From an uncultured Gammaproteobacteria bacterium (GTDB taxonomy: Bacteria > Patescibacteriota > Microgenomatia > Levybacterales > UBA12049), in assembly GCA_964497535.1 (NCBI GenBank), contig CAZCCG010000002.1:234972-298971 (forward strand): a stretch of DNA of 64,000 nt, given 5' to 3'. Below are positions 1 to 54,015 of this stretch, in pieces. A program made the translations under genes and the position numbers. A model generated the notes under the pieces. That model made no database searches and was not told the origin of the DNA. It was given only the letters and a program-made list of their open reading frames with translations. The stretch's first letter is position 1, and each line of letters starts with the position of its first letter.

Positions 1-1327
1 GACCCTCATCGATCGTTGTCCTCCCATATAATCAAAAAATTTACCTGAGAAAAACGGAAAACTATAACAAATAATTGCGATACAAATTAATCCGTATAAA
101 AAATATACCTTATAGATATCTTTTATTTTCAATCGCTGTAGAACATAATCAATCATAATCCCTATGAGTACTGCATATGAAAACCATAGTGCCGGAGCAA
201 ATTTATAAAAAGGTGTACGAAATGCCAAAAACCCTGGAATAAAATTAACCATAAGAATATAAAAGATCCCAAAGGGAGGATGCGAACCTCCAATAAAAAT
301 CATTGAAAAAAGTGCGAGAAACGCAAAAAACAATATAAGAGTCCGTTTTTGTTTATCTTTTATAAGATACAACGGTAGAAATGCTACTACCGGCAGCATA
401 TAGCTGACAAAAATCAAAAAGGGATTTTGAAGATAACTATTTGAATATGGATGACCCGGGTTGTTATACCATTCAGGAATACCTTGTAACCGGAATAGAT
501 TAATTAAAGAACTGTCTTGACTGATATAACTTAACCAACCCAGTACTCCTCCAATTCCTCCTGCTTGAGTTACTGCTTTTGCAAAGGAGGTTTTTACGAA
601 ATAAATCATGGGAATAATCCAGTATGAATTCAAAACCAGACTTAATATCCCAACAGTAATTCCCAGTTGAATGAGGCGTACTATTCTTTTGAAAGAGAAT
701 TCTTTTATGAGATAAAAGATTGCAAAACAAAAGAGAGAAACCAGAAGCCCTCCATAGAGAGGTAAACTTCCTCCGCCATTGAGCAAGAATATGGTTAGGG
801 AAATAAGAATCCCTGTCAATAACGTATTTTTTTTACTATCTTCCCAATCCATTAAAAATGCGAAGATAAGCGGTACGGCTGCATAGAGAGAAAATTTGGT
901 GCGTTCAGCAATAAACCATCCCTGGAGAAGAAAATGATTAAACATAAAAAGGATTGACGCAGGCAAAGCAAAGTATTTTAACTCGAATCTTTTCTCCAAT
1001 TTGGAAGCAAAATAATACATGGCAAGCCCCGGCAAGAGGAACCAGAAAACGAATGTGATTTTTTGCTCGAGCTGAAGCGAAGCTCCAAAAGATGATACAA
1101 GAGCTTCAAGACCATGAATGGGAACTACCGGAAGAAAGATTGATTGATCTGTACCAAATCCCAGGCGGTCTGTCCAGGCAAGAATCCTGTCTTGAAAATG
1201 GGTGATTGGATCAAGTGGTAAACCAGTATCATGCCCTTGGATTACATAATTACCGTTAAACCACAACAGTGGAGTCAAGCCGATCAAGCAAATAATAATA
1301 AGTTCCACTACTTTACGCTTGTTCATA
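1..1327 (-). CDS. Polytopic membrane protein, partial (N-terminal 442 aa; C-terminus lies beyond window start). Not in the supplied ORF track, presumably because no stop codon falls inside the window. Possible GT-C-like/DUF3367-like transferase, family uncertain.
   Basis: Manual translation of the minus strand from ATG at 1325-1327 gives MNKRKVVELIIICLIGLTPLLWFNGNYVIQGHDTGLPLDPITHFQDRILAWTDRLGFGTDQS..., continuous to position 1 with no stop. Multiple hydrophobic segments. TATAAT-like box about 20 nt upstream. Confidence 0.6.
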
Positions 1328-1383
1328 TTCCTATAGTACTCATGCAATTATAGCAGGTTCTTTTTTCATAATATATTATTGTT

Positions 1384-3600
1384 TTAAAGGTAAGCCATTG
1401 TTTGAATAACCTTTTCAATCACCGAATTGTAATCTTCCGTACCATCCTCATTCATTTTTCGCTCAAAACCAGGCCCGGTGGCATAGATCTCAAGCGTTTT
1501 GTCATTTGTCTTATATCCTAAAAAATACATAGGATATTTACTGTTAGTTACATATACGGCGGTTTGGACATCGCTGTTGAACTGGGTAACAATACGAAAT
1601 GTAAAATGTTCCTCAATTGGGATATCTTCTGTATTGGATAACCCCGATGCAAATGTTGATACACCCATATTGTCAATCTTTTTATACAAAATTACATGTA
1701 TTTGGGTATCGTTATCGGGATCTGCTATGGTAACAGTTCGAATAACGGGACTATCTGGCCCTTGATCCAGATCCTGTTTTATCACCATATCAGGCGGGAA
1801 ACGGAAAGAAAAACCATATTTAGCATCTTTATAACTCTTCCATTTATTCATTTCTTGTAAAGTACCTAACCGGTCATATGCTTTTTTCCTGATCAGGTCT
1901 GTTACTTCGGTAATTTGATTCTTATTTCCATCCCAGGCAAATGCATAGACATCTGATGGATCTATTTTATGAGCCAAAATTTGATCCATCAGATGCCGCT
2001 CATCCAGATAATATCCAAATCCTTTCATACCGATTTGCTTATATCCTTCACCGGCAATCCCGCCTTTTGTTAAGTAGTTACTTGTAATGAATGCTAAAGA
2101 AAGCTGTTTTTTTTGATAATAAATAATAGTTAATATCTGCCCTAAATTTGTTTGGAATGGCGGAATAGGAGGAAAACCGTAGTAACCGAAGTTACTATTT
2201 ATATAAACGATTTTTTTATTTTGAGTCAAAGGCACCGTTTGTGTAATTTTATCAATAACAGTCCTGCGTTGATATCCTGTTATTGCTTCCGCAGTAAGCT
2301 CTTTTTGCAGGGTTATATAATTCAAAATAATCCAACTGACCACAAACAATATCAAGATAGCTTTCTCAGAAATCGGAATCAATCGGGATACCTTCTTTGA
2401 TGCCCACTGGCTGAAAGTAATACTTGCTAACGCCAGAAGAAGAACTCCCCCTACTGAGGCTTGATGAATATGACGTGAATCTATATAGGTAACATACCCC
2501 CATGAAGGTATAACAAATGCAATGGGGATTAATACTAAGGATGAAAGAATAATGATAAGAAATGAGAATAAGATTGTGATTCTTGTTTCTCTTCTTGAAT
2601 GAATATAAGCAACGATTGATACAACAATTATTATCGCTGCTAAGGAATAAATTATAGTATCGCTCCCTGCAGTTTGAGTAAATGTCAAATAATTAATACC
2701 TCCGATAGCTTTTTCTGCAGTATATTGTGGATATGCAAGGGTAGTAATGCTTTCCACAAAACCCAGTATCCAAGGGCCGGGAATAAAAACTTCAGTTACC
2801 ATTTTCAACGGATATGTAACTGCTCGAAATAGCAAAATATCCCAAGATAAAAGATGAAATGAAGCTGAATTATTTGTAGTTCCACTTACTAACAGGAATA
2901 TCTTTGGTAATAAAAAACGATAGGGAAGATATATGATAACGACCGGTAGATAATATTTGATGATTGAGATAAATTTTGTTTTTTTTATCTTAAGTATTGT
3001 AAGTATAGGAATAATAACAAACAAAATTGCTGTTGATTCTTTTGTTAAAAGTCCACAGAACATAAAGATTGCCGAATAAATCAGATTTCTTTTTTGTATC
3101 TCCTTTTCTTCAAATGCTTTGAAAAAATGTATAAGACAGAGAAGCAGGAATGCAAGAGATAACCCATTATATATATATGTCATTGCCCAGGTAATTGCTT
3201 GCTGGTGGACAAATGAACAGGCAAAAAAGATAGCGGATATAACTGCAACCTTCTCATTATTTCGGACTATTTTTTTAGCAAAAACGTATACGAGAATTGT
3301 ATCCAACATGTGAAGAATTAATCCACTAAGCGCATACAGCCAATAGGTAAAAGAGAAAGATTGAACGCTGAGAAAAAATAAGAGATTCGTTATGGGGGTA
3401 AGATGAGCACCTGCAGATATTGTATATGAATCTGCAACACTTTTGTACAAAATGATTAAGGGACCAAACCATGTATTAGTATAAGGTAAGGTTTGAATAA
3501 AGTAGTACCATTCATCTCCTTGGAAGTAGAGAACAAAGCTTCTCCAATAAAAAATAAGAATAAGAACTAGTAAGGCCAAAAAAAAATGAGGCTTTTTCAT
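1384..3600 (-). CDS. Large membrane protein (738 aa): N-terminal polytopic domain (about 12 TM) plus C-terminal soluble domain of about 330 aa. Putative GT-C-type glycosyltransferase, family unassigned.
   Basis: Long ORF. Hydrophobic N-terminal two-thirds, hydrophilic C-terminal third. 4-nt overlap with the upstream GT2 gene (3597-3600). Confidence 0.6.
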   Translation of the reverse strand: MKKPHFFLALLVLILIFYWRSFVLYFQGDEWYYFIQTLPYTNTWFGPLIILYKSVADSYTISAGAHLTPITNLLFFLSVQSFSFTYWLYALSGLILHMLDTILVYVFAKKIVRNNEKVAVISAIFFACSFVHQQAITWAMTYIYNGLSLAFLLLCLIHFFKAFEEKEIQKRNLIYSAIFMFCGLLTKESTAILFVIIPILTILKIKKTKFISIIKYYLPVVIIYLPYRFLLPKIFLLVSGTTNNSASFHLLSWDILLFRAVTYPLKMVTEVFIPGPWILGFVESITTLAYPQYTAEKAIGGINYLTFTQTAGSDTIIYSLAAIIIVVSIVAYIHSRRETRITILFSFLIIILSSLVLIPIAFVIPSWGYVTYIDSRHIHQASVGGVLLLALASITFSQWASKKVSRLIPISEKAILILFVVSWIILNYITLQKELTAEAITGYQRRTVIDKITQTVPLTQNKKIVYINSNFGYYGFPPIPPFQTNLGQILTIIYYQKKQLSLAFITSNYLTKGGIAGEGYKQIGMKGFGYYLDERHLMDQILAHKIDPSDVYAFAWDGNKNQITEVTDLIRKKAYDRLGTLQEMNKWKSYKDAKYGFSFRFPPDMVIKQDLDQGPDSPVIRTVTIADPDNDTQIHVILYKKIDNMGVSTFASGLSNTEDIPIEEHFTFRIVTQFNSDVQTAVYVTNSKYPMYFLGYKTNDKTLEIYATGPGFERKMNEDGTEDYNSVIEKVIQTMAYL

Positions 3601-4646
3601 TCTTTGTATCTATCTAAATGTCCCGTAAATAGATAATAGTAGTAGGAAAGTCGAACATGCCATGTAAGCTTGGGTAAAAATTCAGAATCAGGAATTTTTC
3701 TCATCGTAGTTTGTATTACTTTTCTTTTTGCCAGTGTTTCATTCAAGTGGATAATATTCCAGAATATTGCTTTTTGGATCCCCCATGACTCATTAAATTT
3801 AAACTTCGCCAAATATCCGAAGCTCGTAACTTCACAAAATATGAGATGTAGAGGTAAAACTGTCAAAATATTTTGTACTTCAAAGTTTTTTATATACGTA
3901 GCTATTCTATTTTTGAATGAGTTATATTGAATCCAGGCATAATTGATTCTTTTGGAAGTCCTTCCTCCTTTATGATAAATAGCTGTAGATGGCTCACACA
4001 ATACTTTATATCCACTCAGCCATACTCTATGACAAAGATCAGTTTCTTCAAAATATGCGAAATAATCTTTGTCAAAAATTCCAAGTTTTCCCACTTTTTT
4101 AATAACTTCCTTTTTGAAAAGCATACATGCCCCTTTCATAGAAAAAATTTCCTGTTTTTTGTTGAATTGTTTTTGATCTTTCTGATCATGACCATAATGA
4201 TAGAGAAATCCGCTGTTAAGGAAAAAAGATCCTACTGAATCAATTTTTTCTTTTTGAGGATATTGCAATATTTTCGGCATAACTGCACCTATAGTTGAAG
4301 AACTATAAAGTGTTTTTATAAGAATATCTATTACGTTTTTTTCGACTAATGTATCGTTACTGAGGAATAATATAGCATCACCTTTTGCTTGTAAAAACCC
4401 AACATCATTTCCTTCAGCAAATCCTAAATTCTCTTTATTTATAACAATTCTTGCAGAAGGATAATTTTTCTTAACGTATTCTACTGAATCATCTTTCGAT
4501 GCATTATCTACTACAATTACTTCTTTATTCTTGTAGGTAGTTTTATATACGGATTTCAAGCAATCTTCCAGGAGTTCTTTTCCGTTCCAGTTAACAATAA
4601 TAACGGATACAAGAGGATTAACCATGTTTTTGGATATATTTGTCAA
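3597..4646 (-). CDS. Glycosyltransferase family 2 (GT-A fold).
   Basis: N-terminal motif VSVIIVNWNGKELLEDCL...VIVVDNASKDDS...NLGFAEGNDVG, typical of the GT2 nucleotide-sugar binding domain. Confidence 0.85.
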   Translation of the reverse strand: MTNISKNMVNPLVSVIIVNWNGKELLEDCLKSVYKTTYKNKEVIVVDNASKDDSVEYVKKNYPSARIVINKENLGFAEGNDVGFLQAKGDAILFLSNDTLVEKNVIDILIKTLYSSSTIGAVMPKILQYPQKEKIDSVGSFFLNSGFLYHYGHDQKDQKQFNKKQEIFSMKGACMLFKKEVIKKVGKLGIFDKDYFAYFEETDLCHRVWLSGYKVLCEPSTAIYHKGGRTSKRINYAWIQYNSFKNRIATYIKNFEVQNILTVLPLHLIFCEVTSFGYLAKFKFNESWGIQKAIFWNIIHLNETLAKRKVIQTTMRKIPDSEFLPKLTWHVRLSYYYYLFTGHLDRYKE

Positions 4647-5949
4647 AAATTGAGGTTACATATTCAATATGTTTGTCTGTTAATCCTGGATATACTCCAA
4701 TAAAAAATGTGTTGGTAAAGGATAAATTTGAATTTGCCAGATCACCAATTTGTCTATGAGCTATATTTTTATATCCGGGTTGTCGCAAAATATTCCCTGC
4801 AAATATTGGTCTTGTTTGTATCATATGCTCTTCTAAAAATTGTGTTATTGCAAATCTATCAAAAGGGGCATCTGGACGAATCGTCATAGGGAAAGCAAAC
4901 CAACTGGGATCTGATTTTGGCATAGCCTCGGGTAAAATAAAATATTTTTCATACTTTTTGAAGAATTTCTTATAATGAGCAAAATTTTTCTTTCTTGCTA
5001 TAACAAACTCCGGAAGTCTTTTGATTTGGACCAAACCCATTGCTGCCTGTATTTCAACCGGTTTTATATTATAGCCAATATGTGAAAATATATATTTATG
5101 GTCATAGGGAATCCCATCGATATTATAGTTAAATCGGACACCGCAAACTCCATTTGTCCCTCCTCCTGAAGCTCCACACCAACAGGATCTTCCCCATTCC
5201 CTAATTGATTGGACAATTCTTTTCAGCCTTAAATTGTTGATAAAAACTGCTCCCCCTTCTCCAGCTGTAGTCATATGATGAGCGGGATAAAATGACTCTG
5301 CTGATAAAATTCCGAAAGATCCTGTCTTTTTCCCATTGTAGGTTGATCCTAATGCGTCACAGTTATCTTCCAAAACCAAAAGATTATTCCTATTTGCGAT
5401 TTCCATTATCGGATCCATGTCATTGGGATTACCCAACGTATGAACCAAAAAAATCATTTTTGTTTTTTTACCAATTGCTTTTTCTATATCTTCAGCTTTA
5501 GGATTCAAGGTATGCAGGTCTACATCTACAAAAACAGGCTTTAGTCCATTATGGACTAAGGCTGCAACAACGGCCGGAAACGTACAAGCTGGGGTTATTA
5601 CTTCGTCTCCTGGATTCAAATGCTCGGTAAACTGATACGACATTAAAGAAGCAACAGCTAATAAATCTGCAGAAGATCCAGAGTTGGTCAGATAAGCATG
5701 TTTTGCCCCCATATACTCGGCAAGTTCTTTTTCTAACTGTTCTCCCGCTTCACCCAAACCAAACCACCCCTTCAACATTACATCAACCATTGAGTTAAGT
5801 TCTTCACTTCCATAAACTGCTCCAGCATATCGTACCAAGCTTTTTCCGGGAATAAATTCTGGTTGGTCGATAGCCATATATTGCGAAATGGCTTTGTGGA
5901 TGGATTTAACCAGCGTATCTTTCTTTAAAGAAGAGTTCATAATAAACAT
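4618..5949 (-). CDS. rfbH: PMP-dependent 3-dehydrase of the DegT/RfbH family. Resembles CDP-6-deoxy-D-xylo-4-hexulose-3-dehydrase (E1/RfbH/DdhC). True start probably the internal Met at about 5940.
   Basis: 443 aa, longer than ordinary DegT aminotransferases. Active-site region SFYPAHHMTTAGEGG has His where transaminases have the PLP-binding Lys, as in E1/ColD. Cysteines C197, C256, C258, C269 form C-X58-C-X1-C-X10-C, close to the E1 [2Fe-2S] motif C-X57-C-X1-C-X7-C. LVHTLGNP motif also present. Confidence 0.6.
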   Translation of the reverse strand: MFIMNSSLKKDTLVKSIHKAISQYMAIDQPEFIPGKSLVRYAGAVYGSEELNSMVDVMLKGWFGLGEAGEQLEKELAEYMGAKHAYLTNSGSSADLLAVASLMSYQFTEHLNPGDEVITPACTFPAVVAALVHNGLKPVFVDVDLHTLNPKAEDIEKAIGKKTKMIFLVHTLGNPNDMDPIMEIANRNNLLVLEDNCDALGSTYNGKKTGSFGILSAESFYPAHHMTTAGEGGAVFINNLRLKRIVQSIREWGRSCWCGASGGGTNGVCGVRFNYNIDGIPYDHKYIFSHIGYNIKPVEIQAAMGLVQIKRLPEFVIARKKNFAHYKKFFKKYEKYFILPEAMPKSDPSWFAFPMTIRPDAPFDRFAITQFLEEHMIQTRPIFAGNILRQPGYKNIAHRQIGDLANSNLSFTNTFFIGVYPGLTDKHIEYVTSIFDKYIQKHG

Positions 5950-6033
5950 TTGTTATTGTACACCATTCCCTATATGTTGTAAATAATATGTTGAGGTTGT
6001 TGTTTGCGGTAGCTGAATTCTTGAGTTATAATA

Positions 6034-6993
6034 ATGTTAGATATGGCAAAGAAAAACTACATGGTGACTGGTGGACTTGGTCTTATTGGCTCAGCAATTG
6101 TTAATTCACTAACCGATCCAACCACTATCGTAACACGTTCAACCCGCAGAATGGACCGGTTAAAAAGAAAAGATGTAAAAATTATTGTAAAAAATATTAA
6201 TGATCTGACTCTTGAAGATCTAAAAGGTATTGATATTATTTACCACTGTGCAAGTAAACCCACAAATTATAATGTTCTTTCAGATCCATATATAGATATA
6301 CAAACAGATTTGGTTGGTACTGTACATATTTTAGAATTATGCAAGAACCTGAAAAAAAAACCACTTTTCATTTATTTTTCGACCTTCTTCGTATATGGAC
6401 ATACCTATGATAATACAAAAACTCCTATTAATGAGGAAAGTAAGACTGACCCACTTGCAATTTATCCTGCAACCAAACTCTGTGCGGAAAGCATCGTAAG
6501 ACTCTATGGAAAACTTCATCAAATGCCATATCTTATTTGTCGATTAACCAATGTATATGGAGAGCTTGAAGATTACAATAATAGTCAAAAAGGCGCATTA
6601 AACCTTCTGATTATGAAAGCAATCAAAGGTGAAGAATTAAAGATATATAATAATGGCAATTTCTATAGAGATTATATTCACGTTGATGATGTTGTCTCAG
6701 CCGTACGTTTTCTTGAAGAAAAACAACAATATGATACTCTCTATTTAATTGGGTATGGAAAACCGATCTTATTTAGTGAACTTATTCATACCATTAAAGA
6801 GCTAACTCATACTACTTCCGAAATCCATGCTGTAGAACCTCCTCCTTTTCATAAAGTTGTTGGTATGAACAATTTTGTCGCAGATACATCGAAGATTAAT
6901 AGATTGGGTTGGAAACCTAAGGTTACTCCAAAGGAAGGGATAGAAAAAATAGTAAAACAATATAAAGATCTTCTTACAAAAGATGTTGAATAA
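6034..6993 (+). CDS. NAD(P)-dependent epimerase/dehydratase (extended SDR). Possibly a nucleotide-sugar 4-reductase/epimerase partnering the RfbH-like enzyme.
   Basis: N-terminal Rossmann motif VTGGLGLIGSAIV. Catalytic YPATK (YxxxK). Divergently transcribed from the RfbH-like gene. Confidence 0.75.
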   Translation: MLDMAKKNYMVTGGLGLIGSAIVNSLTDPTTIVTRSTRRMDRLKRKDVKIIVKNINDLTLEDLKGIDIIYHCASKPTNYNVLSDPYIDIQTDLVGTVHILELCKNLKKKPLFIYFSTFFVYGHTYDNTKTPINEESKTDPLAIYPATKLCAESIVRLYGKLHQMPYLICRLTNVYGELEDYNNSQKGALNLLIMKAIKGEELKIYNNGNFYRDYIHVDDVVSAVRFLEEKQQYDTLYLIGYGKPILFSELIHTIKELTHTTSEIHAVEPPPFHKVVGMNNFVADTSKINRLGWKPKVTPKEGIEKIVKQYKDLLTKDVE

Positions 6994-8011
6994 GCCGATG
7001 ATAGGTATCCGGTTTTAAATAGGACTTAGCCTGATTAGCCGACCTTTCCAGCACTACTTTTCTGATTTCTTTTATAATAGGCCTGGGTAAAATTACTAAG
7101 CCAGTATATACGTAAAACATTGGATTGAATAACAACCTCTTATCGAGTGACACCATGCTCCATGCAACATGATAAGCATTTTCTATCGAAGTGAAATAAC
7201 GGATGTTGGTAATAAAAAACAAATTAGTAGTCAGATACTTTAATCTGAACTCTTCAAATGATGTTTTGTTTCTTATTTCTTTGTACGCTAACTCAATGAA
7301 ATCCCTCATGAAAAAACTCCCGTGTTTTTTGATATCAAAGTAAACAGGAAGCATTTCGAAACTCAGCCTTGCGATAATATATAAATCCGGGATATAGACG
7401 CACCCTTTTTTCTGGATGACATCAAAAAGTACAGGAAAATAAACAAACCCCATATGGTTTATCAGTTTTTTCGTATCTACAAATTCTTTTCTGAAAGTTA
7501 TTCCGGAAAAAAACCCAAAGTTAAAATCAAGCATGTCTAACAACACATTATGAGAAGCGCTGGGTTTGCGGGTTGTAACTTTTGTGAAATGTATAAATGA
7601 TTTCACTAGTGTATGTATATCGGTATCATAAGAGAATCCGCCAATTTTTCCTATTCCTACTCTTGTCTCATCCATAATTGTTTTAATTTTCTCAAATGTA
7701 TCGTCATATAAGATAAAATCATCATCTCCCAACGTGAAAACATAGGTTCCTTTCGCCACTTCAAATCCTTTAATTACTTTCAATGGATACCCCAAGTTTT
7801 TCTCGCTTTTATAATAACGAATATTTTTATTTTTGAATTTTTTTGTCAGGATTTCTATTGCATCAGTCTTTGTGTCATCCACAATGATAATTTCATAGGA
7901 TACGTTCTTCTGCGCGAGTACTGATTTTATTGCAATTCCTAAGTATTCCGGACGATAAGCAGGTATTATAACGCTAAAATCGACTCTTGAATCTCTTTCT
8001 TGTTTATTCAT
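6974..8011 (-). CDS. Glycosyltransferase family 2 with C-terminal extension.
   Basis: FSVIIPAYRPEYLGIAIKSVLAQ...YEIIIVDD GT2 signature. 345 aa. Confidence 0.8.
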   Translation of the reverse strand: MNKQERDSRVDFSVIIPAYRPEYLGIAIKSVLAQKNVSYEIIIVDDTKTDAIEILTKKFKNKNIRYYKSEKNLGYPLKVIKGFEVAKGTYVFTLGDDDFILYDDTFEKIKTIMDETRVGIGKIGGFSYDTDIHTLVKSFIHFTKVTTRKPSASHNVLLDMLDFNFGFFSGITFRKEFVDTKKLINHMGFVYFPVLFDVIQKKGCVYIPDLYIIARLSFEMLPVYFDIKKHGSFFMRDFIELAYKEIRNKTSFEEFRLKYLTTNLFFITNIRYFTSIENAYHVAWSMVSLDKRLLFNPMFYVYTGLVILPRPIIKEIRKVVLERSANQAKSYLKPDTYHRLIQHLL

Positions 8012-10072: not shown

Positions 10073-10099
10073 GCCTCTTATTGTAGCATATGGATTTTA

Positions 10100-13503: not shown

Positions 13504-13507
13504 TAAT

Positions 13508-44766: not shown

Positions 44767-44767
44767 G

Positions 44768-46976: not shown

Positions 46977-48703
46977 TTGATATGTTTCTTTTTTGTTACT
47001 AGAAAAATTGTATAGATCAAAACTGAAATCAATGCAAGAAATGTAAGAATGTTACCGGTTCTTCTATATAACGTATCAGTAAATTTCGCTTCTATGTTAT
47101 ACATCCCCGGAGACAGATTAATAGTGATGAGCTTGAGTTTATTATTGCTACTATATTGTATTTGTTTTCCATTTGCAAATACAACCCATCCTGGAAAGGT
47201 ATAGGTATTTAAGCTGACTGTACCGGGACTATGGACTGTCATTTTATATTGTTTTGTTTGGGGATTATTTTTTAAAACATCTACATCTATATCACCTGAC
47301 AAAACCGTATATGCCGCTGTGGCAATTTGATCTTGTCTTACATCAATTACAGAATTTCCAATATCTGATTTTTTAGTGGCAATACCTTTGGGGGTATATT
47401 CAAAGGCCATAATACTGGTACGCCACCGTAATACACTCTGGCTGATATAGCTATTATCTGTAACCTCGGACAAATACTTGCTCGGGACAAAAAATTGCTG
47501 GTTTACTGCAATAATCAATACTATCGCAACTGCAATTCCCCATAATCGATATGTGCGTTTCAAGGGCAACAATTCTATAGATGCAATTAGAAACGAGAGA
47601 GTAAATGCCGATAATACTAAAAAGCGCCAGGGAAATTGGATATACGAAAATGCCTGCAAGATATCCCAAATCGGCTTCGAATAAACAGTTTGAATGAATA
47701 AAGAAAATAAGAACATTCCCCAAAAAATGACCAAAACAGTGGCATACTTCTTTTTTTTAAGAATCGTGTATAAAGTAGCAACTGCCGCCACCACACCCAA
47801 AACCAGCTGAACCTTTCCTACCTCAAATGACAACCCATCATCACAATTATAAAGAGACCCTCCATACCCCCAGGGAGAATTAAAAAACTGTTTGACACAG
47901 ACAAAATGAAGATTATAATCTGCTAATTCTGTAGTCAATAAATCAACCATAGTAAACTTTTTCTCCATCACTGCCGGAAGCAAAAAATAAGCACTCAGAC
48001 AAAGTGCCAGAATACCGCTTACCAATACTCCAATGACAAATTTTTTCTTTTGTTTTGTTGTGATCCAAAGAAAAATAAGATAGATCCCGATAAAAAGGAC
48101 GCTCATCATCATAATCAGGTTATGGGCAAGTACAAAAGAGGCTAAAGCAACTCCTGCTGCGATAGCCCAATAGAACTTCTGGGTATGATAAAACCGGGTA
48201 TATGCCCAAAAAACCAATGGAATTGCTACAAAAGACCATGCTTCGGGAAATGCCCCTCGTACATAAATATCTACGGAATGATAGGGTGCATATAAATAGG
48301 CAACAGAGGCAAGAAGTGACCCTGCTTTTCCAAAGTATTCCCGACAGAATAAATACATGAAGATCGCGGAAAGAATAAAGCCAATACCTACCATTATTTT
48401 TATCGACCAGATATAGGAGACCCCCATGAGCCTGAATAGTTCAGCAATGTAGTATACGAGTGGTGGATAAAAATTAAAGAGCGGATAATCGTAGCCAAAC
48501 CCTAAATCTTGAGCTAATCTGGGAGGAATATGCCCCGCGCGAACATCCTGGTCAATTTCATATAACCTCCCCACCTGCTCATCATCGTGGATAGGAAAAA
48601 ACCCTACATGAAACAACGGTTGTATAGTAAAAAAAGATATAAGAATAATAAGGAGGTACATGATATATTCCTTCTGTTTGATAAAAGAAAAAATATTTTT
48701 CAT
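46973..48703 (-). CDS. PTPS-related (PF10131-like) polytopic membrane protein, paralog A. Start placed at the internal ATG that forms an ATGA overlap with the upstream paralog.
   Basis: FPIHDDEQVGRLYEIDQDVRAGHIPPRLAQDLGFGYDYPLFNFYPPLVYY is the family-typical HD..E / PPR / GYGYPLFNFY signature. The ORF track starts at 48790, but MKNIFSF at 48701-48703 gives the classic 4-nt coupling overlap. Confidence 0.65.
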   Translation of the reverse strand: MKNIFSFIKQKEYIMYLLIILISFFTIQPLFHVGFFPIHDDEQVGRLYEIDQDVRAGHIPPRLAQDLGFGYDYPLFNFYPPLVYYIAELFRLMGVSYIWSIKIMVGIGFILSAIFMYLFCREYFGKAGSLLASVAYLYAPYHSVDIYVRGAFPEAWSFVAIPLVFWAYTRFYHTQKFYWAIAAGVALASFVLAHNLIMMMSVLFIGIYLIFLWITTKQKKKFVIGVLVSGILALCLSAYFLLPAVMEKKFTMVDLLTTELADYNLHFVCVKQFFNSPWGYGGSLYNCDDGLSFEVGKVQLVLGVVAAVATLYTILKKKKYATVLVIFWGMFLFSLFIQTVYSKPIWDILQAFSYIQFPWRFLVLSAFTLSFLIASIELLPLKRTYRLWGIAVAIVLIIAVNQQFFVPSKYLSEVTDNSYISQSVLRWRTSIMAFEYTPKGIATKKSDIGNSVIDVRQDQIATAAYTVLSGDIDVDVLKNNPQTKQYKMTVHSPGTVSLNTYTFPGWVVFANGKQIQYSSNNKLKLITINLSPGMYNIEAKFTDTLYRRTGNILTFLALISVLIYTIFLVTKKKHIK

Positions 48704-50430
48704 ATAGTATGCTTTTTTCGGTTGAACCGCTTTACTGCTTCTGTCTTTAACGTAAGATTTGGTTGAAACTTTCCTGGCAGGAATAACCAAATCAATAAAA
48801 ATAGTATTCCCAAAAGTGTTACTACATCAGCTGTCATACGAAGCGGTGTTTCCGTAAACTTAGCCTGAATTGTAGAACTCCCACTACCCAACGGAATTTC
48901 CATAAGACCCTGGCTATTATTATAAGAGATAGGGACACTTTTTCCATTGACCCAAATTGTCCACCCCGGATAATAAATAGTATTGAAACGCACGGTACCA
49001 GGATGATTCATGGATGATTGGAAAGAAATATTTTTTGAATTAAAAACAACATGGGAGATATTCCCGTTTCCATTGATTAAAAATACTTTTTCTTTCGGCC
49101 AGTTAGTTGGAAATTGCTTGACCCAAAGCGGCATAAATTCAAAAGAAGCAGTAGTTGTAGCATCATTAGTACTGTAATAAGAATCATCCCGTGTAGTAAA
49201 TGATATGGGTTTGGTGTATGGCAAAACAAAAAATACTCCTGCCAACGATATTCCCATCACCAGATATCGCAACTTCGGTATTGTTCCCAAATATCCGGCT
49301 CCGAGTGAAACCAAAAAGCCGATAATACCAAGCATGGTCCAAGGAAAAGTTATATCTTTCATAATGGGAATAATTTTCCATAAAAAGTTTGATGGTGGAA
49401 ATAGGAAAAATATAAAAATGAGGATCAAAATTGAAAAAAACAAACTCAAACGAAATGATACGGTTGTTTTCTTTTTTTTATTTTTCACAAAAATTATAAT
49501 AAGTGTAATGATTCCTACGATATATGCAATAAGTTGAGTAATACCAAGCTGATAGGTAAACCCATCTTTTTGAGAAGGACTTCCATACCCCCAGGAAGGA
49601 AGAATAAATTGCTGAATTGAAACAAAAAAATTATCCCGGACCGCGATGGGAATTTTTGCAAAAAGAACATTATTTTTTTCAATCAGTGCCGGAAGCCAAA
49701 AATAACAGGACAAAATAATTCCAAATACCATAGTTAGTATCAACGAAACCGCACTTTTATTTTTTCCTGAGACAAAGAGTGCCGCAATCGTGATAACCAT
49801 TGCCATAGAGAAGTATAAAAACATAATATTATGGGTAAGAACTAACGCTCCATACGAAAAAGCGGATATCAAAAGAGGGATTTTAGAAAAGGGCTTTTCG
49901 TACTGTTTTACCATACCCCAGGCAATTAGAGGGAATAATATAAAAGCAACCGATTCACCCAAGGATCCTCTTACATAAAGATCCACAAATCGATAGGGTA
50001 AAAAAACAAACAAAAACATGCTGATAAATCCTGCATAGGTACTTTTCCATAGTGCTTTTGAAGCACAAAAGATAAAGTAAGCTGAAAAAACCATACTGGC
50101 AATAAAGAGTATTTTTATACTATTTATGAATCCGAAATGTATTACATGTAAAACCGTTGTAAGGTAGTAAGGAAATGGATACGCAAAGTTAAAAAGCGGA
50201 TATCCATATCCATGATTGAGCACCCCGGAATAACGGGGAGGAATTTGCATATCTTTTATCTCCCGATACATATCTGCTGCACGGACTACTGCCCACTCGC
50301 CATCATGGGTTGTAAAGTACCCTTCCTGAAAAAACGGAAGCAAAAGAGGAATAGATATAATAACTGCAATAACAAAAGCAGCAAGGTAGAGGTATATCCC
50401 TGTTGTATATTTCAAAACTTGTGTTTTCAT
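48700..50430 (-). CDS. PTPS-related (PF10131-like) polytopic membrane protein, paralog B.
   Basis: FQEGYFTTHDGEWAVVRAADMYREIKDMQIPPRYSGVLNHGYGYPLFNFAYPFPYY. 576 aa. Collinear with paralog A, including the C-terminal soluble domain. Confidence 0.65.
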   Translation of the reverse strand: MKTQVLKYTTGIYLYLAAFVIAVIISIPLLLPFFQEGYFTTHDGEWAVVRAADMYREIKDMQIPPRYSGVLNHGYGYPLFNFAYPFPYYLTTVLHVIHFGFINSIKILFIASMVFSAYFIFCASKALWKSTYAGFISMFLFVFLPYRFVDLYVRGSLGESVAFILFPLIAWGMVKQYEKPFSKIPLLISAFSYGALVLTHNIMFLYFSMAMVITIAALFVSGKNKSAVSLILTMVFGIILSCYFWLPALIEKNNVLFAKIPIAVRDNFFVSIQQFILPSWGYGSPSQKDGFTYQLGITQLIAYIVGIITLIIIFVKNKKKKTTVSFRLSLFFSILILIFIFFLFPPSNFLWKIIPIMKDITFPWTMLGIIGFLVSLGAGYLGTIPKLRYLVMGISLAGVFFVLPYTKPISFTTRDDSYYSTNDATTTASFEFMPLWVKQFPTNWPKEKVFLINGNGNISHVVFNSKNISFQSSMNHPGTVRFNTIYYPGWTIWVNGKSVPISYNNSQGLMEIPLGSGSSTIQAKFTETPLRMTADVVTLLGILFLLIWLFLPGKFQPNLTLKTEAVKRFNRKKHTI

Positions 50431-50434
50431 GAAG

Positions 50435-51949
50435 CTACTTGGCAGGAATAATCTGATAGATGTTGAGATAATTATTCGAGTCTCCCTTTTTAATACTCAA
50501 TACGTTCTTTACCGGCCAGCTAAGAGGCGCAACACCAAATCCCTGACATGAAGGACAGGGTTGATAAAATAAAAAGTATGTTGGCATTTTCTTGGCAATT
50601 GTCATAACATCTGCCGGAGGAACGTCTTGAGTCGGCCAGTATCCTTTGATTGTAACATTCGGATCAGATTGGAAATACATCTCCAAAGCAAATGGCATCA
50701 ACCCAAAAGTACCCTGAGTTGCTATATAGATCGGCCCGTTTTGAGATTGCTCTTTAAAAAACGTAATTGATTCTTTCACTCCGACACCTGCCGGCCAACC
50801 GACAACAAATTGATCCAAATCAGTTTGGGGAATTGGTGCGCGAGCAAGATTCGTTATAATGAAAAAATCTGCATAGAGATACCACAAGAATAAAATGCCG
50901 ACAATAAATGCTTTTGCTTTTAACTTTTCTTTAAGTTTGACTATGACAAAAGCCATAACTGGCAACAACGGCAGCGTCATCAAAAGAATATGCCGAGGAT
51001 AAATGACTTTCCCGAAAAATGCAAAATATGTGATAGGAATACCAAAAGCGAGAAAACAAAATAGGATTTCTCTCCAGTGCTTTTTGCCATAGAAGAAAAC
51101 TCCAACCAAAAGAATAAGGGGAATTGACATATAGATAGCTAACCAATTCAAAAGCCCTTTTGTGTTACCAAACACAAATGCAAATGGTTCATGTATCCAA
51201 TCTTTTATCGGATACACAAATGTGGTATTTTTCTCATCAATGATATGGAAAAAAGGAGAAAGCCGCAGAACCGAATAATATACATATGCCAAAACTGAGG
51301 CAATAACCGCATACGTAATCCACTGTCGTAACCTCTTCCCTCTTTCTTTTTCTTTCCAATCAAATAATAACAATGTAAACGGTAAAAAGGCGCTCGTAAA
51401 AAATGCATTAGTTTTGGTAAGCATACCTCCACCCAAAACGAGAGCTAATATAAAGGAGATATCCAGACGCACTCTTCGTACCAAAAGCACTTCAACATAC
51501 AATCCCCATATATAAAATGCCCCCACCAGACTGTCATACAAAGCCATTCGATCATACACCAGCCCAAAGGGATAAATGAGGTAGATTCCGGCAGATATAA
51601 TACCAACCCATTTATTTTTAAAAAGCTCTTTCCCGAAAAAGAATAATCCCAGCATGGTTCCAAATCCGGCAAAAACAGAAACAATTCTTCCGGCAAATAA
51701 CGGATCATGGAAGATTTTAAACATAGGCATCATCAGCCAAATGAAGAGTGGCTGTTTACCATCAGTAAGGGAAATAAATCTCCATGCCGCATCATTAGCC
51801 GCAATTTGTCCCCAACGAATGTAAATCGCTTCATCCGTAAAAATAGGAAGAGCAGTCAAGTTATACAAACGGGTAAGAAAATAAATAACGGTAAATCCAA
51901 GAAGAATGAGTGTTTCTGTTTGATATTTCTGAATGAGTTTATTGATCAT
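50435..51949 (-). CDS. ArnT-like (GT83/COG1807) GT-C glycosyltransferase.
   Basis: LPIFTDEAIYIRWGQIAANDAAWRFISLTDGKQPLFIWLMMP (DE motif plus KPPLf-like motif). 504 aa. Confidence 0.65.
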   Translation of the reverse strand: MINKLIQKYQTETLILLGFTVIYFLTRLYNLTALPIFTDEAIYIRWGQIAANDAAWRFISLTDGKQPLFIWLMMPMFKIFHDPLFAGRIVSVFAGFGTMLGLFFFGKELFKNKWVGIISAGIYLIYPFGLVYDRMALYDSLVGAFYIWGLYVEVLLVRRVRLDISFILALVLGGGMLTKTNAFFTSAFLPFTLLLFDWKEKERGKRLRQWITYAVIASVLAYVYYSVLRLSPFFHIIDEKNTTFVYPIKDWIHEPFAFVFGNTKGLLNWLAIYMSIPLILLVGVFFYGKKHWREILFCFLAFGIPITYFAFFGKVIYPRHILLMTLPLLPVMAFVIVKLKEKLKAKAFIVGILFLWYLYADFFIITNLARAPIPQTDLDQFVVGWPAGVGVKESITFFKEQSQNGPIYIATQGTFGLMPFALEMYFQSDPNVTIKGYWPTQDVPPADVMTIAKKMPTYFLFYQPCPSCQGFGVAPLSWPVKNVLSIKKGDSNNYLNIYQIIPAK

Positions 51950-52017
51950 ATTTTATTCTTCGAACGAAGTGAGAAGTAAATCGTAATAGTTCTCGCTGAC
52001 ACTCGAACAATATGTAC

Positions 52018-53229
52018 TTATTTTACCACTTTTGATGAGCGTAAAGCCAACATAGAAACTCCTGTTGTAAACACAGAAATAAGAATAGAAACGACCAGCA
52101 GTATCTGCATAATCTGCGGAATGGGGGGATCATAATTACCGGTATAGAAAAAGGGGATATATTGAAACAGTGCCAAAAAAGTAATAGTTATAACCCCAAC
52201 TGCAACAATATATTTATTCGCGACCAAAGCAGCAATAGGCACCAGGAATAGGAGGTACCACGGCTGAAATGTAGTACGGAGTGAAGCAAAGACTACCGGG
52301 AGAACCATAAGATAGGTAAGGATGATAAAAAACTGTTCCCATTGTATTGATTTTGATCGAGATAAGACAAACAAACCGATTGCCGCAACAACCAATACGG
52401 CAATATGAATAGGCACTGGAATTGTATCTGCTGCTATTTTAACTCCATAAAAAAGGACAAAGAAAATCCACGCGGCTATATAGTTTTTTTTGACAACAAA
52501 AAACAAAGATACTACTGCAAAAAACATCATAACAATATCGTTGTGAGCTGAGACCAAACCTTCAATGATAACAAAAGGATTGAGTGCAAAAAAAGCAACA
52601 CCTAACAACTGTTCTTTTGGCCGAACTGTTTTTAGAATTTTTCCGATAAAATATGCTGTGCCTATATAGGCTGCTAATGCGATGAATTTAAATAAGAAGA
52701 ACGTCGGCACGAAATACCCCCAACCAATAAAAGAAGCTGGAATTGTAATACCAAGCCACACTGGACCATAGGGATATGTCCGATGTGTCCAATGCATAAA
52801 GGAAAGCATAGGATCACCGGGAAAATCCAAAGCCTTGTGATCGTAGGGATTAAGATGATAATGGGTGACAATCTTTGCGTCAAAAATGTAGTTGAAAAGA
52901 TCATAAGAAAATGCATTATAAGAAACTGCCCCAACCAACGCAGTAATAAAAATAAGTGTCCAAATGGTTTTTGATGAAAATTTTTTAATGTTTTTAAGAA
53001 TCAGCAGGTAGGAAATTAATAATAGAGAAAAAACAGCAATAACTAGAACTGCAGATAAAGGCCGATTAAAATAGCCGATATATTGAAATGATTTTTCCAG
53101 ACTTTGGATAATGGAACTGCGCGAAACGGTAAGACTGAGGTCAATTTGAGTGAAGGAATAAAGAAATAACCCTCCCAAACTAAATAAATATAACCCAATA
53201 AGAAGTTTTTTAAATTTGAAATTTGACAT
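52018..53229 (-). CDS. DUF2029/GT87-like polytopic membrane glycosyltransferase.
   Basis: DLFNYIFDAKIVTHYHLNPYDH...RTYPYGPVW...NPFVIIEGLVSAHND resemble the D..F / NPY / YPP / HND conserved positions of the DUF2029 (PimE-like) family. Confidence 0.5.
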   Translation of the reverse strand: MSNFKFKKLLIGLYLFSLGGLFLYSFTQIDLSLTVSRSSIIQSLEKSFQYIGYFNRPLSAVLVIAVFSLLLISYLLILKNIKKFSSKTIWTLIFITALVGAVSYNAFSYDLFNYIFDAKIVTHYHLNPYDHKALDFPGDPMLSFMHWTHRTYPYGPVWLGITIPASFIGWGYFVPTFFLFKFIALAAYIGTAYFIGKILKTVRPKEQLLGVAFFALNPFVIIEGLVSAHNDIVMMFFAVVSLFFVVKKNYIAAWIFFVLFYGVKIAADTIPVPIHIAVLVVAAIGLFVLSRSKSIQWEQFFIILTYLMVLPVVFASLRTTFQPWYLLFLVPIAALVANKYIVAVGVITITFLALFQYIPFFYTGNYDPPIPQIMQILLVVSILISVFTTGVSMLALRSSKVVK

Positions 53230-53253
53230 TTGAAATTGGTATTTATTGAAAAT

Positions 53254-54015
53254 TTACTTGTATACTCCATTCAAACTATTCATCTTAATTTTCAAAAGAT
53301 CCAGTACCCCATCAATAGAATCGGTAATGGGATTTACCCGGCGTGTCTCAACATATAACCAGCTGACCGGTACTTCTTTTATTTTGTAGCTCATCTTTTG
53401 TGCCAGATACAATAGTTCAATATCAAATCCTGAAGTAACCGATGAACCTGAGATTGCAGCAAATCCATTATGGATATTTTTGATCTTTGAAAATAATGTA
53501 TGCGCGGCATCCTTTGTAAAAGCTTTGAAGCCACACTGAGTATCTGATAAATCAGGCAATCCTACTATTAATTTTCTCAGTACTATTGATGAACGGGAAA
53601 TAAAAAGACGAATTAGGGGCGCGCCTTTGCGTCGGGTACTGCGTGATCCGATTACCACGTCATATCCTTGATTAAAGTATGGCAGTATTTTTTCTACTTC
53701 TTCAATAGGAGTTGCCTGATCCATATCGGTAAAAAGGATATACTCACCTGTGGCAGCCAGGACTCCGGTTGTTACTGCGCCGGCTTTGCCGGTATGGGAA
53801 TTTTTGATAAGCTTGAAATGTGGATTTTCTTTGACGAACTTCTCTACAAACTCTATACTGCCGTCTTTTGACCCATCATCAACCACAATTACTTCATATG
53901 AATAGCTTTGTTTACCCAGATAGTGATCAACTTTATCCAGAACGCCTTTTTGCAGATTCGCCATTTCGTCATAGGAGGGAATTACAACCGAGAGGAATAT
54001 TGTTTTCACACTCAA
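53254..54015 (-). CDS. GT2 polyprenyl-phosphate glycosyltransferase-like. First gene of the 32.7-54 kb operon.
   Basis: LSVVIPSYDEMANLQKGVLD...YEVIVVDDGSKDGSIEF...FTDMDQATPIEEV. Confidence 0.85.
   Translation of the reverse strand: MSVKTIFLSVVIPSYDEMANLQKGVLDKVDHYLGKQSYSYEVIVVDDGSKDGSIEFVEKFVKENPHFKLIKNSHTGKAGAVTTGVLAATGEYILFTDMDQATPIEEVEKILPYFNQGYDVVIGSRSTRRKGAPLIRLFISRSSIVLRKLIVGLPDLSDTQCGFKAFTKDAAHTLFSKIKNIHNGFAAISGSSVTSGFDIELLYLAQKMSYKIKEVPVSWLYVETRRVNPITDSIDGVLDLLKIKMNSLNGVYK

Follow-up and report, generated by a model that had tools for sequence, protein, structure and literature searches.

What use would a groundwater/soil-type bacterium from the Microgenomates (candidate phyla radiation, CPR), whose genome is probably small as is typical of CPR bacteria, have for a 54-kb run of genes devoted to glycosylation, many of them for large membrane proteins? 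The question is raised by a stretch of 64,000 nucleotides, called the window in what follows (contig CAZCCG010000002.1, positions 234,972 to 298,971, of assembly GCA_964497535.1), whose bases 1–54015 are taken up by an array of 42 genes. The answer favoured here, at a probability of roughly 0.6, is that the array would encode a greatly expanded multi-component transmembrane glycosylation system, in which membrane-embedded glycosyltransferases (GTs) of the GT-C type act on the far side of the membrane; what it builds there is probably a cell-surface sugar coat.

Counted from the open reading frame (ORF) listing, the left-edge translation and the gene table, 39 of the 42 genes lie on the minus strand; 29 of the 41 junctions have an overlap or a spacing of at most 10 bp, the widest gap is 335 bp, and GC runs from 0.31 to 0.38 over the array. 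Is the arrangement real? Independent assembly of three sequencing runs yields contigs with a 99.95–100% match to the window, and because of that agreement the arrangement is taken as real and an assembly chimera as ruled out. The array continues for at least 5.2 kb past the left window edge, seen in the same contig and in a Logan contig, and there the remainder of g00, a 657-aa GT-C-like protein and one GT4 are encoded; its right-hand end is a tRNA-Glu. The window holds most of an array of at least 59 kb, nearly all of it on one strand.

Nineteen large polytopic membrane proteins, flippases excluded, account for 57.7% of the array DNA. Pfam scans place ten genes in GT2 (g02, g05, g13, g20, g27, g28, g31, g34, g36, g41), four in GT4 (g06, g12, g16, g30) and two among the MOP/Wzx flippases (g14, g35); six encode sugar-nucleotide enzymes (g03, g04, g07, g10, g11, g17) and one, g18, a small protein with five transmembrane (TM) segments. 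A first-pass annotation of this DNA had described nearly every gene up to 54 kb as a glycosyltransferase, a flippase, a sugar-nucleotide enzyme or a large multi-TM protein, and g18 alone falls outside that description. Its figures of about 20 large membrane proteins and two Wzx flippases agree with the present count, its minimum of 11 GT2 enzymes was one too high, and only four of its minimum of five GT-B/GT4 enzymes are in the window, a fifth GT4 lying just past the left edge. It had also judged the density to be far above that of an ordinary O-antigen or teichoic-acid locus, and so it is.

The large membrane proteins

Are these proteins glycosyltransferases at all? Positive evidence for GT-C identity was obtained for 18 of the 19, g32 being the exception: for 11 it comes from Pfam, for five from paralogy, profiles or orthologues, and for two from AlphaFold models (AF2) and fold search. 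The 11 that pass a Pfam gathering score are g08, g19, g21, g22, g23, g25, g26 and g39 (PMT_2 and/or PMT), with g37, g29 and g15. By blastp there are four paralogue families, A (g19, g22, g23, g25), B (g21, g26 and weakly g24), C (g37, g38) and D (g08, g39). When family profiles built from 80 related loci, described below, were compared by hhalign, these four families, YfhO, full-length g00, the upstream 657-aa protein, g33 and g46, the last encoded beyond the array, formed one network, and the flippases g14 and g35, serving as negative control, had no link of 50% or more to it. Blastp and hhalign tie g38, g24, g33 and g00 to the same network. No large membrane protein matches a transporter family, and the profile check for non-glycosyltransferase families that the first-pass annotation had proposed assigned none. 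Sequence and models together support the view that the large membrane proteins (18 of 19) are GT-C-type enzymes and not transporters.

Their layout is also of one kind, the canonical one for GT-C enzymes. Typically a short K/R-rich N-terminus precedes TM1 and a long acidic loop 1, the TM helices number 8–13, and a C-terminal soluble domain of 110–306 aa follows; a hydropathy scan gives 8–13 TM segments for all 19 proteins, and the helix counts of the AF2 models of g01 and g09 concur. Loop 1 has 57–101 aa in 17 of the 19, with g33 and g40 deviating. Positive-inside counts give most proteins an N-in topology, and from the K/R-rich N-termini together with fold homology we infer that the catalytic loop 1 faces outside. 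Just past TM1 most proteins carry an acidic motif, which does not vary within any family that was aligned: D35/E36 in family A, D29/E30 in the g01 family, where W31 is invariant too, D30 in g09 and D45 in g32. The acidic loop that had been named as a GT-C hallmark is in this way found in most of the proteins; the KPPLY- and RLPSA-like motifs that had been ascribed to many are confined to family A (g19, g22, g23, g25) and, loosely, g39. The family A alignment has D35/E36, K69 and R92-P94-S95-A96 as invariant residues, and g19 displays LDE, KLPLY and RLPSA.

Should the PMT-like proteins be filed as GT39? Within bases 1–54015 Pfam PMT (PF02366) is passed only by g23 (33.1 bits) and g25 (25.6 bits), the remaining proteins matching only the broader PMT_2, a model shared with ArnT-like enzymes. 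At E ≤ 0.01 no protein has a Pfam match to PMT_4TMC or MIR, and because these are missing the GT39 filing was dropped. As labels of likeness, the families that had been named from the letters are all present: PMT/PMT_2 (GT39/ArnT-like), PTPS_related, YfhO, PIG-V and GT87/DUF2029-like (g40), with several proteins unassigned.

Single members deserve comment. On the Logan contig full-length g00 is called as 1128 aa, with 1135 aa for its longest ORF, and it matches Pfam GT-C_AftD at E 1.5e-5 and 23.6 bits, under the cutoff of 26; by hhalign it reaches 97% to g37/g38, and its orthologues, of 1132–1135 aa and with AftD matches from weak to strong, adjoin those of g09. In g08 the N-terminus is K-rich and loop 1 has a DE motif; blastp matches the protein to g39 at E 3.5e-5, and hhalign gives 95–96% to g26/g39/g22. 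With g15 the topology is N-in and loop 1 has 71 aa. The YfhO match spans residues 210–661 of the 767 of g29, whose orthologues are found at E 1e-276. Across 410 columns g33 aligns with g24 at 95.7% by hhalign, and it has orthologues in 18 loci. GT87 is matched by 3 of 22 orthologues of g40 (best E 4e-5), g40 itself being without a match in the Pfam scan run here. In g37 a TTG opens the longest ORF, which has a 91-bp overlap with g38; a 562-aa version with its start further in is used in public gene calls, and the true start is probably that internal one.

What of the proteins without a family? For eight unassigned membrane proteins, and for g15 and g18, the NCBIfam scan gave nothing at E ≤ 0.1. 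Profile searches with the alignments of g01, g09, g32, g33, g40 and family A, run against all Protein Data Bank (PDB) sequences, gave nothing meaningful, and so a comparison of folds was required. With the g01 and g09 models the tops of the lists hold GT-C structures only. For g01 (pLDDT 86.3) the Foldseek matches are STT3 at E 3.6e-5 and ArnT at 1.1e-4, then AglB, Pmt4, DPY19 and AftD; its family is rare, with 25 homologues, and its deep profile reaches 94% to family A in an hhalign-type comparison. There are 60 homologues of g32, every one hypothetical, with its D45 lying in loop 1. GT-C families without any model are represented by g01, g09 and g33 and, as a candidate, g32, and part of the value of the array is that it exposes several such families that neither Pfam nor CAZy covers.

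The g09 family and a backbone shared by related loci

What might g09 do? Its modelled fold, including the C-terminal globular core, matches the oligosaccharyltransferases STT3, AglB and PglB, with a C-terminal domain of only about 110 aa. In sequence it has no WWDYG motif, no WWD in the family consensus, no Pfam or NCBIfam match and no profile match to solved oligosaccharyltransferase sequences; since both the motif and a match to the STT3 family model are missing, membership of that family was rejected. Nonetheless g09 may work similarly to STT3, and it is a candidate en-bloc transferase or polymerase. The family is large and strongly conserved: at least 357 close homologues at 53–80% identity are all called hypothetical and have no Pfam domains, and a full-library profile search gives 1176 clusters at 50% identity. 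Among 34 diverse relatives there was no Pfam family, one weak PMT_2 match aside, and no PDB sequence match. Invariant across the family are D30, P66, R137, Q182, G328 and Y333.

A distant cluster of the family belongs to the cultivable Metapseudomonas otitidis and Ectopseudomonas khazarica, where the NCBI name is hypothetical or 'glycosyltransferase family 39 protein'. With g09 the Pseudomonas-type relative shares 24% identity, and the two are collinear across 479 residues. On the chromosome CP152345.1 its gene (10001–11512 in L092) stands immediately after Wzx within a wbp-type O-antigen cluster that also holds WbpA/B/D/E-like genes, GT4s, Bac_transf, a PglD-like acetyltransferase, DegT and a WbpM-like dehydratase, and no polymerase candidate besides the g09 relative is present in that cluster. 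Cultivable Pseudomonas would in this way offer a genetically tractable test system, and were the family to prove a polymerase or an oligosaccharyltransferase, a new tool for glycoengineering. The case bears on a negative statement of the first-pass annotation, that no Wzy, Wzz, ABC exporter or initiating phosphoglycosyltransferase is evident. Pfam and NCBIfam searches of the window indeed have no match to Wzy_C, O-ag_pol_Wzy, Wzz, an ABC transporter, Bac_transf or Glycos_transf_4. The statement stands for Wzz, the exporter and the initiating enzyme; 'no Wzy' cannot be concluded, because Wzy proteins are divergent with a GT-C fold (PMC10920833) and the g09 relative adjoins Wzx in Pseudomonas.

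Is the array the oddity of one genome? The family A alignment was scanned against one genome per species, giving at least 588 relatives, and the best 80 loci were inspected. All 80 come from CPR metagenome-assembled genomes (MAGs) of the Microgenomates group, the closest being Levybacteria (about 50% identity), then Roizman-, Gottesman-, Woese- and Curtissbacteria, and all 80 have runs of GT-C-like genes, typically 4–12 in a locus that spans up to about 21 kb. In the minus-strand reading the conserved order is g31-g30-g29 (YfhO)-g28-g27-[variable GT-Cs]-g23-g22-[variable GT-Cs]-g20-...-g17-g16-g14-g13-g12; for 61 ORFs in related loci g20 is the best match, and phmmer finds matches to it in 62 loci. 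Backbone orthologues are only 50–55% identical to those of the nearest genomes (Levybacteria and other Microgenomates). A single Levyibacteriota contig carries two of the inspected loci (L036 and L078, 46.7–97.3 kb), and since they share it a comparable array of about 50 kb is present there; the second of them repeats g34–g40 in the same order. The left module is likewise kept, as g09 orthologues of three other genomes lie between two gene sets, on one side DegT, usually an acetyltransferase, a GT4, a small GT2 and a flippase, and on the other a GT2, a g01-type GT-C, methyltransferases and an AftD-like GT-C.

Because of this conserved gene order and the conserved left module, the array is read as a conserved backbone with variable paralogues, neither fully syntenic nor fully hypervariable, and that combination therefore suggests a core envelope glycan with diversifying decoration across Microgenomates. 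The comparison for synteny that had been proposed has turned out between its two alternatives: the backbone is lineage-wide and partly syntenic, and the paralogue content varies. The g09 modules elsewhere (L088, 12831–16881; L087, L089) carry S-adenosylmethionine methyltransferases, an MBOAT and AlgX-like pair for polysaccharide O-acetylation, and a carbamoyltransferase, none of which is in the window, and it seems that lineages differ in how they tailor one and the same backbone glycan. Dozens of CPR-type MAG records (L007, L009, L015, L016 and many others) in the species-representative genome set bear the placeholder title 'uncultured Gammaproteobacteria bacterium', which would lead astray anyone who reads taxonomy from titles.

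Donors, flippases and what the array may build

By what donors would so many GT-C enzymes be fed? By blastp g13, g27, g36 and g41 form a single GT2 paralogue group of the DPM1/PpgS/ArnC type, with NCBIfam matches of 30–109 bits that are full-length to PpgS, DPhHxTase_Halo and AglJ and partial to ArnC and PgfS. They resemble the anchor-less style of PpgS and human DPM1. Besides AglJ, g27 matches DPhHxTase_Halo, PpgS, ArnC and PgfS, and g41 matches PgfS, ArnC and DPhHxTase_Halo, all below cutoff; the best solved relatives of g27 are ArnC, the Pyrococcus dolichyl-phosphate mannose synthase PfDPMS and GtrB, with only the GT-A core aligned. GT2s of the polyprenyl-phosphate-sugar-synthase type, which had been announced, are present, and the 'many' monosaccharide donors that went with them were overstated: since just four of the ten GT2s are of this type, few donors stand beside many transferases.

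The two flippase genes each overlap such a synthase-type gene, g14 and g13 by 4 bp and g35 and g36 by 8 bp, which is why both flippases may move polyprenyl-phosphate monosaccharides rather than diphosphate-linked repeat units. In related loci a synthase-type GT2 is directly beside the interior flippase gene in 11 of 11 cases, and for a MOP-superfamily flippase with a polyprenyl-phosphate-sugar synthase and a GT-C there is a precedent (Kelly et al. 2024, PMC11127046). The synthase-type g27 is two genes away from the YfhO gene g29, and a spacing within two genes recurs in 14 of 27 related loci. The small g18 overlaps the end of g19 and has homologues in two related loci, in one of which (L031) it is beside the g19 orthologue; it might be a small flippase for lipid-linked sugars that stands in for GtrA. 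On the side of sugar supply g03 would imply a 3,6-dideoxyhexose-type sugar in a CPR bacterium, and its usual partners, a CDP-glucose synthase and RfbI, were not seen in the window. The NCBIfam model for dTDP-4-amino-4,6-dideoxygalactose acyltransferase scores 107.7 bits with g10, under its cutoff of 219.

From the gene content, the family and fold assignments and the synteny, all directly established, a scheme can be drawn whose donors, flipping direction, outward catalytic loops, acceptors and part for g09 are conditional. In the cytoplasm g17 (GalE), g03 with g04/g07, and g11 with g10 would make unusual nucleotide sugars, and g13, g27, g36 and g41 would load sugars onto polyprenyl phosphate; the remaining GT2 and GT4 enzymes may extend lipid-linked intermediates. 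The flippases would then carry lipid-linked sugars outward, and at the outer face 19 GT-C enzymes (22 with the flanks), of about a dozen families, would transfer them to envelope acceptors, a role in which a cell-wall polymer, a lipoglycan and/or surface proteins might serve. That the GT-C proteins use lipid-phosphate-linked donors we infer from the co-encoded synthase-type GT2s and flippases only. Probably the g09 protein, which is always linked to a flippase and an amino-sugar module, acts on a flipped oligosaccharide en bloc, whether by transferring or by polymerising it. An elaborate extracytoplasmic glycosylation of proteins or the cell wall had been proposed from the letters; that proposal is partly supported, and the window content does not single out protein over cell-wall polymer as the acceptor.

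How does this compare with what is known? Three-component extracytoplasmic glycosylation systems were reportedly set out by Mann and Whitfield in 2016. In the Gtr-type systems (GtrA/GtrB/GtrC of Shigella and Salmonella; Citrobacter GT136, PMC11127046) a GT2 synthase, a flippase and an outer-face GT-C work together as proposed for the array, and in Citrobacter a MOP-superfamily flippase is encoded beside the synthase, as with g14/g13 and g35/g36. However, each of those is one module added on to a separate polysaccharide pathway, whereas the array has four synthases, two flippases and about 20 GT-C genes, its synthases are without membrane helices, and a GtrA-type small flippase is missing. A parallel to the CsbB/YfhO/GtcA system of teichoic-acid glycosylation in Bacillus and Listeria (Rismondo et al. 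2018, PMC5836110; review PMC8035078) is offered by the YfhO protein g29 and the CsbB-like GT2 g27, paired in about half of the related loci, though the window has no GtcA and the GT-C families of the array, YfhO included, number about 12. With the Arn pathway of lipid A aminoarabinose there is correspondence in the DegT g11, the acyl-modifying g10, the ArnC-like g13, the flippase g14 and a GT-C (g09 or PMT_2-type); of the solved relatives of g27 ArnC is the best, and ArnT ranks with the leading structural matches. Against that, a probable monoderm has no lipid A, the scores are far under the Arn equivalog cutoffs, and a GT4, g12, lies within the module.

In mycobacteria and corynebacteria the arabinogalactan and lipo(arabino)mannan of the envelope are made by EmbA-C, AftA-D, MptA/B and PimE with Ppm1 and PpgS/Rv3779, so that many GT-Cs build a branched polymer outside the membrane from few polyprenyl-monophosphate sugars. 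The array has relatives of these enzymes in the AftD-like g00, the GT87/MptA-B-like g40 and the PpgS-like GT2s, the similarity not rising above family thresholds. In mycobacteria the genes are scattered over a 4.4-Mb genome, in contrast to the one array here, and no genes of the decaprenyl-phospho-arabinose pathway were seen in the window. Set beside the archaeal Agl system (AglJ, the AglR flippase, AglB) and bacterial PglB, g09 differs in being without WWDYG and a Pfam STT3 match and in its short C-terminal domain. Wzx/Wzy loci for O-antigen or capsule, with the CAZy families GT122–GT135 (Meitil et al. 2024, PMC10920833), share Wzx-type flippases, sets of GT2 and GT4 enzymes, and deoxy- and amino-sugar genes, and in the Pseudomonas O-antigen cluster the g09 relative fills the polymerase slot; the window, however, lacks an initiating phosphoglycosyltransferase, Wzz and a recognisable Wzy, and the polytopic enzymes of the array are an order of magnitude too many.

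Might the array then be a Wzx/Wzy-type heteropolysaccharide locus after all, with g09, g15, g32, g33 and others as divergent polymerases, ligases and en-bloc transferases that act on polyprenyl-diphosphate oligosaccharides? That is somewhat doubtful, and it is partly compatible with the explanation favoured here. It would account for two Wzx-family flippases, six non-synthase GT2s, four GT4s and amino- and deoxy-sugar genes, as in O-antigen clusters; Wzy-type polymerases are of GT-C fold and too divergent for single-family profiles (PMC10920833), one g40 orthologue weakly matches EpsG, and in the M. otitidis wbp-type cluster, which has a Bac_transf, the g09 relative right after Wzx is the sole polymerase candidate. 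It is improbable that the array serves mainly protein O-glycosylation, its PMT-like paralogues being protein O-mannosyl(glycosyl)transferases for S-layer, pilins or sortase substrates after the manner of actinobacterial Pmt or streptococcal Pgf. The PMT/PMT_2 matches, the weak matches of g41, g27 and g13 to streptococcal PgfS, the resemblance of g35 to an 'O-glycosylation flippase' model and the near-ubiquity of sortase in Microgenomates (PMC6744442) would fit; yet the PMT N-terminal model is matched weakly and by g23 and g25 only, with no PMT_4TMC or MIR, no Ser/Thr-rich surface protein is encoded within or beside the window, to the right of which only short contigs are on record, and families with lipid or polysaccharide acceptors (YfhO, GT87/MptA-B, AftD-like, PIG-V-like) are intermixed. 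Hardly credible is the thought that the large membrane proteins are transporters or structural proteins whose Pfam matches are compositional noise of hydrophobic segments: several Pfam scores are a few bits over threshold and hhalign between TM proteins can be inflated, though the hhalign network with its unlinked flippases and the GT-C fold matches of the g01 and g09 models effectively refute it.

The expanded transmembrane glycosylation system has findings of its own to contend with. To have about 20 transferases beside four donors is unusual, and may mean that several of the 'GT-C' proteins use diphosphate-linked oligosaccharides or have non-catalytic roles. The NCBIfam scores of the four synthase-type GT2s are all far under equivalog cutoffs, and these proteins have no TM segments, the C-terminal helices of GtrB, ArnC and PfDPMS being absent. 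Pfam scans reveal no GtrA/GtcA-type small flippase in the window, and neither an acceptor gene nor an initiating phosphoglycosyltransferase nor an LCP/ligase was seen there. The Pfam PMT_2 scores, at 27–46 bits, are only slightly over threshold, and by hhalign g32 reaches only 55% to g37 and 42% to g24, nothing being significant to family A or g09. A bolder proposal, that the main envelope glycan of Microgenomates is built almost wholly on the membrane's outer face by a conserved assembly line of more than 20 GT-Cs from few polyprenyl-monophosphate sugars, with no classical phosphoglycosyltransferase/Wzy route and with the g09 family, as universally conserved, minimal enzymes of AglB/STT3 fold, forming a new class of transferases or polymerases that take oligosaccharides en bloc, is rather unlikely.

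What is new in this? The envelope of CPR bacteria (Patescibacteria) mediates host attachment, phage recognition and survival of ultra-small cells, and its chemistry is essentially uncharacterised. The enzymes are of known superfamilies, and their logic is that of Gtr, CsbB/YfhO, ArnC/ArnT and the mycobacterial Emb/Aft/Mpt enzymes; scale and organisation are new, in that one array, conserved across a whole candidate superphylum, brings together about 20 GT-C genes from about a dozen families. On the favoured reading Microgenomates set aside a large gene array for glycosylation that is extracytoplasmic and lipid-carrier-dependent, and backbone and variable paralogues make a concrete gene set from which the envelope glycan can be predicted and then found. 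A limited literature search on GT-C, GT39 or PMT in CPR, Microgenomates or Patescibacteria found no description of such arrays; one genome paper has 29 glycosyltransferase genes. Of 35 Microgenomates-enriched families 14 were predicted to be membrane-localised, and lineage-enriched families were mostly hypothetical proteins (Meheust et al. 2019, PMC6744442); the arrays may explain part of those enriched hypothetical membrane-protein families.

Coordinates and the right-hand flank

Table 1. Genes and other features of the window, with the evidence for each assignment
Feature	Assignment	Position	Strand	Basis
g00	AftD-like GT-C, N-terminal 442 aa in window	1..1353	-	cut by left window edge
g01	738-aa GT-C, 306-aa beta-rich C-terminal domain	1384..3600	-	no Pfam match; AF2 and Foldseek
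g02	ordinary cytoplasmic GT2	3597..4646	-	Pfam Glycos_transf_2 1.5e-24; NCBIfam EPS/rhamnosyltransferase-like, below cutoff
g03	RfbH-type pyridoxal-phosphate enzyme (CDP-6-deoxy-4-hexulose 3-dehydrase)	4618..5949	-	NCBIfam RfbH 527.5 bits (cutoff 423); Pfam DegT 3.2e-87
g04	NAD-dependent sugar-nucleotide dehydratase/epimerase	6034..6993	+	Pfam Epimerase 1.7e-38; dTDP-glucose 4,6-dehydratase-like, below cutoff
g05	GT2	6974..8011	-	Pfam Glycos_transf_2 6e-20
g06	GT4 (GT-B)	8004..9161	-	Pfam Glycos_transf_1 5.9e-12
g07	RmlD-like 4-ketoreductase	9146..10072	-	Pfam RmlD_sub_bind 1.1e-50; NCBIfam rmlD 167 bits (cutoff 224)
g08	605-aa PMT_2-type GT-C, 212-aa C-terminal domain	10100..11917	-	Pfam PMT_2 26.9 bits (cutoff 26.1)
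g09	497-aa GT-C, AglB/STT3-like fold; Pfam-less, strongly conserved family	12010..13503	+	fold search of model
g10	GNAT N-acetyltransferase, WecD-like	13508..14227	-	Pfam Acetyltransf_1
g11	DegT-family sugar aminotransferase (PseC/ArnB-like)	14224..15378	-	Pfam DegT 1.3e-126; NCBIfam PseC 387.7 bits (cutoff 423.5)
g12	GT4	15375..16466	-	Pfam Glycos_transf_1 3.1e-33
g13	small soluble GT2, polyprenyl-phosphate-sugar-synthase type	16473..17276	-	full-length NCBIfam PpgS, ArnC, DPhHxTase_Halo, below cutoff
g14	MOP/Wzx-type flippase	17273..18532	-	Pfam Polysacc_synt 3.3e-15
g15	396-aa PIG-V-like GT-C	18529..19719	-	Pfam Mannosyl_trans2 26.7 bits (cutoff 22.4)
g16	GT4, conserved backbone gene	19716..20768	-	Pfam Glycos_transf_1 3.2e-32; orthologues in 39 loci
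g17	UDP-glucose 4-epimerase GalE, conserved backbone gene	20765..21745	-	NCBIfam galE 398.9 bits (cutoff 262.3)
g18	199-aa 5-TM protein	21767..22366	-	sub-threshold NMN_transporter match only
g19	family A PMT_2-type GT-C	22338..23900	-	Pfam PMT_2; 30-32% identity to g22/g23/g25
g20	253-aa GT2, second subtype, conserved backbone gene	23884..24645	-	Pfam Glycos_transf_2 6.1e-20; g31 paralogue
g21	family B PMT_2-type GT-C	24666..26171	-	Pfam PMT_2 36 bits; 29% identity to g26
g22	family A GT-C, conserved backbone gene	26208..27851	-	Pfam PMT_2; orthologues in 80/80 loci
g23	family A GT-C, conserved backbone gene	27844..29472	-	Pfam PMT_2 38 bits, PMT 33 bits; 40% identity to g22
g24	family B-related GT-C	29469..30956	-	no Pfam match; hhalign 100% (E 7.8e-39) to g26, 99.9% to g21
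g25	family A GT-C	31009..32688	+	Pfam PMT_2, PMT; paralogy
g26	family B GT-C	32689..34182	-	Pfam PMT_2 37.8 bits
g27	polyprenyl-phosphate-sugar-synthase-type GT2, conserved backbone gene	34184..34906	-	NCBIfam AglJ 108.9 bits, below cutoff
g28	GT2, conserved backbone gene	34903..35859	-	Pfam Glycos_transf_2 4.8e-24
g29	767-aa YfhO-family GT-C, conserved backbone gene	35862..38165	-	Pfam YfhO 90 bits (cutoff 28.5)
g30	GT4, conserved backbone gene	38162..39232	-	Pfam Glycos_transf_1 3.3e-20
g31	GT2 of g20 subtype	39568..40320	-	Pfam Glycos_transf_2 3.9e-17; 29% identity to g20
g32	517-aa polytopic protein, GT-C-like by layout only	40322..41875	-	no Pfam/NCBIfam match
g33	651-aa GT-C, extra N-terminal ~100 aa (2 TM helices)	41872..43827	-	no Pfam match; hhalign
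g34	GT2, rhamnosyltransferase-like	43849..44766	-	Pfam Glyco_tranf_2_3 1.2e-14; NCBIfam rhamnosyltran, below cutoff
g35	MOP/Wzx-type flippase	44768..46225	-	Pfam Polysacc_synt_3 2.3e-50; NCBIfam MOP flippase / O-glycosylation Wzx-like, below cutoff
g36	polyprenyl-phosphate-sugar-synthase-type GT2	46218..46976	-	NCBIfam DPhHxTase_Halo, ArnC, AglJ full-length, below cutoff
g37	PTPS_related/PMT_2 GT-C (family C)	46973..48790	-	Pfam PTPS_related 27.1 bits, PMT_2 28.2 bits
g38	family C GT-C	48700..50430	-	no Pfam match; blastp to g37 E 1.9e-53; hhalign 99.4% to g29
g39	PMT_2-type GT-C	50435..51949	-	Pfam PMT_2 45.8 bits
g40	403-aa GT87/MptA-B-like GT-C	52018..53229	-	precomputed Pfam MptA_B_family match
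g41	polyprenyl-phosphate-sugar-synthase-type GT2, first minus-strand array gene	53254..54015	-	Pfam Glycos_transf_2 1.2e-27
tRNA-Glu(CTC)	right end of array	54428..54501	+	ARAGORN; Rfam tRNA 57.5 bits
g46	8-TM PMT-like module with MecA_N and PBP_dimer, beyond array range	58878..61010	-	Pfam PMT 1.4e-5, 25.2 bits

An Rfam scan found nothing except the tRNA at the right-hand end of the array, whose 5′ end is overlapped by an ORF for an 83-aa GIY-YIG nuclease (region 54191–54501). The independent Logan contigs break between 53733 and 54429, GC climbs from about 0.35 to 0.43 across 56–60 kb, and the small ORFs there have no significant Pfam matches; the stretch around the tRNA and on to 56–60 kb may be an insertion or a strain-variable junction.

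Beyond it lies g46, in which a GT-C module is fused to the N-terminal half of a class B penicillin-binding protein, with no transpeptidase domain; its NCBIfam matches are the N-terminal halves of PBP4(5)/PBP2a, and by hhalign it reaches 96.5% to g39. The fusion hints that some GT-Cs may act at the machinery for peptidoglycan synthesis. An orthologue of g46, of 692 aa, is found in a Levyibacteriota MAG (locus L010).

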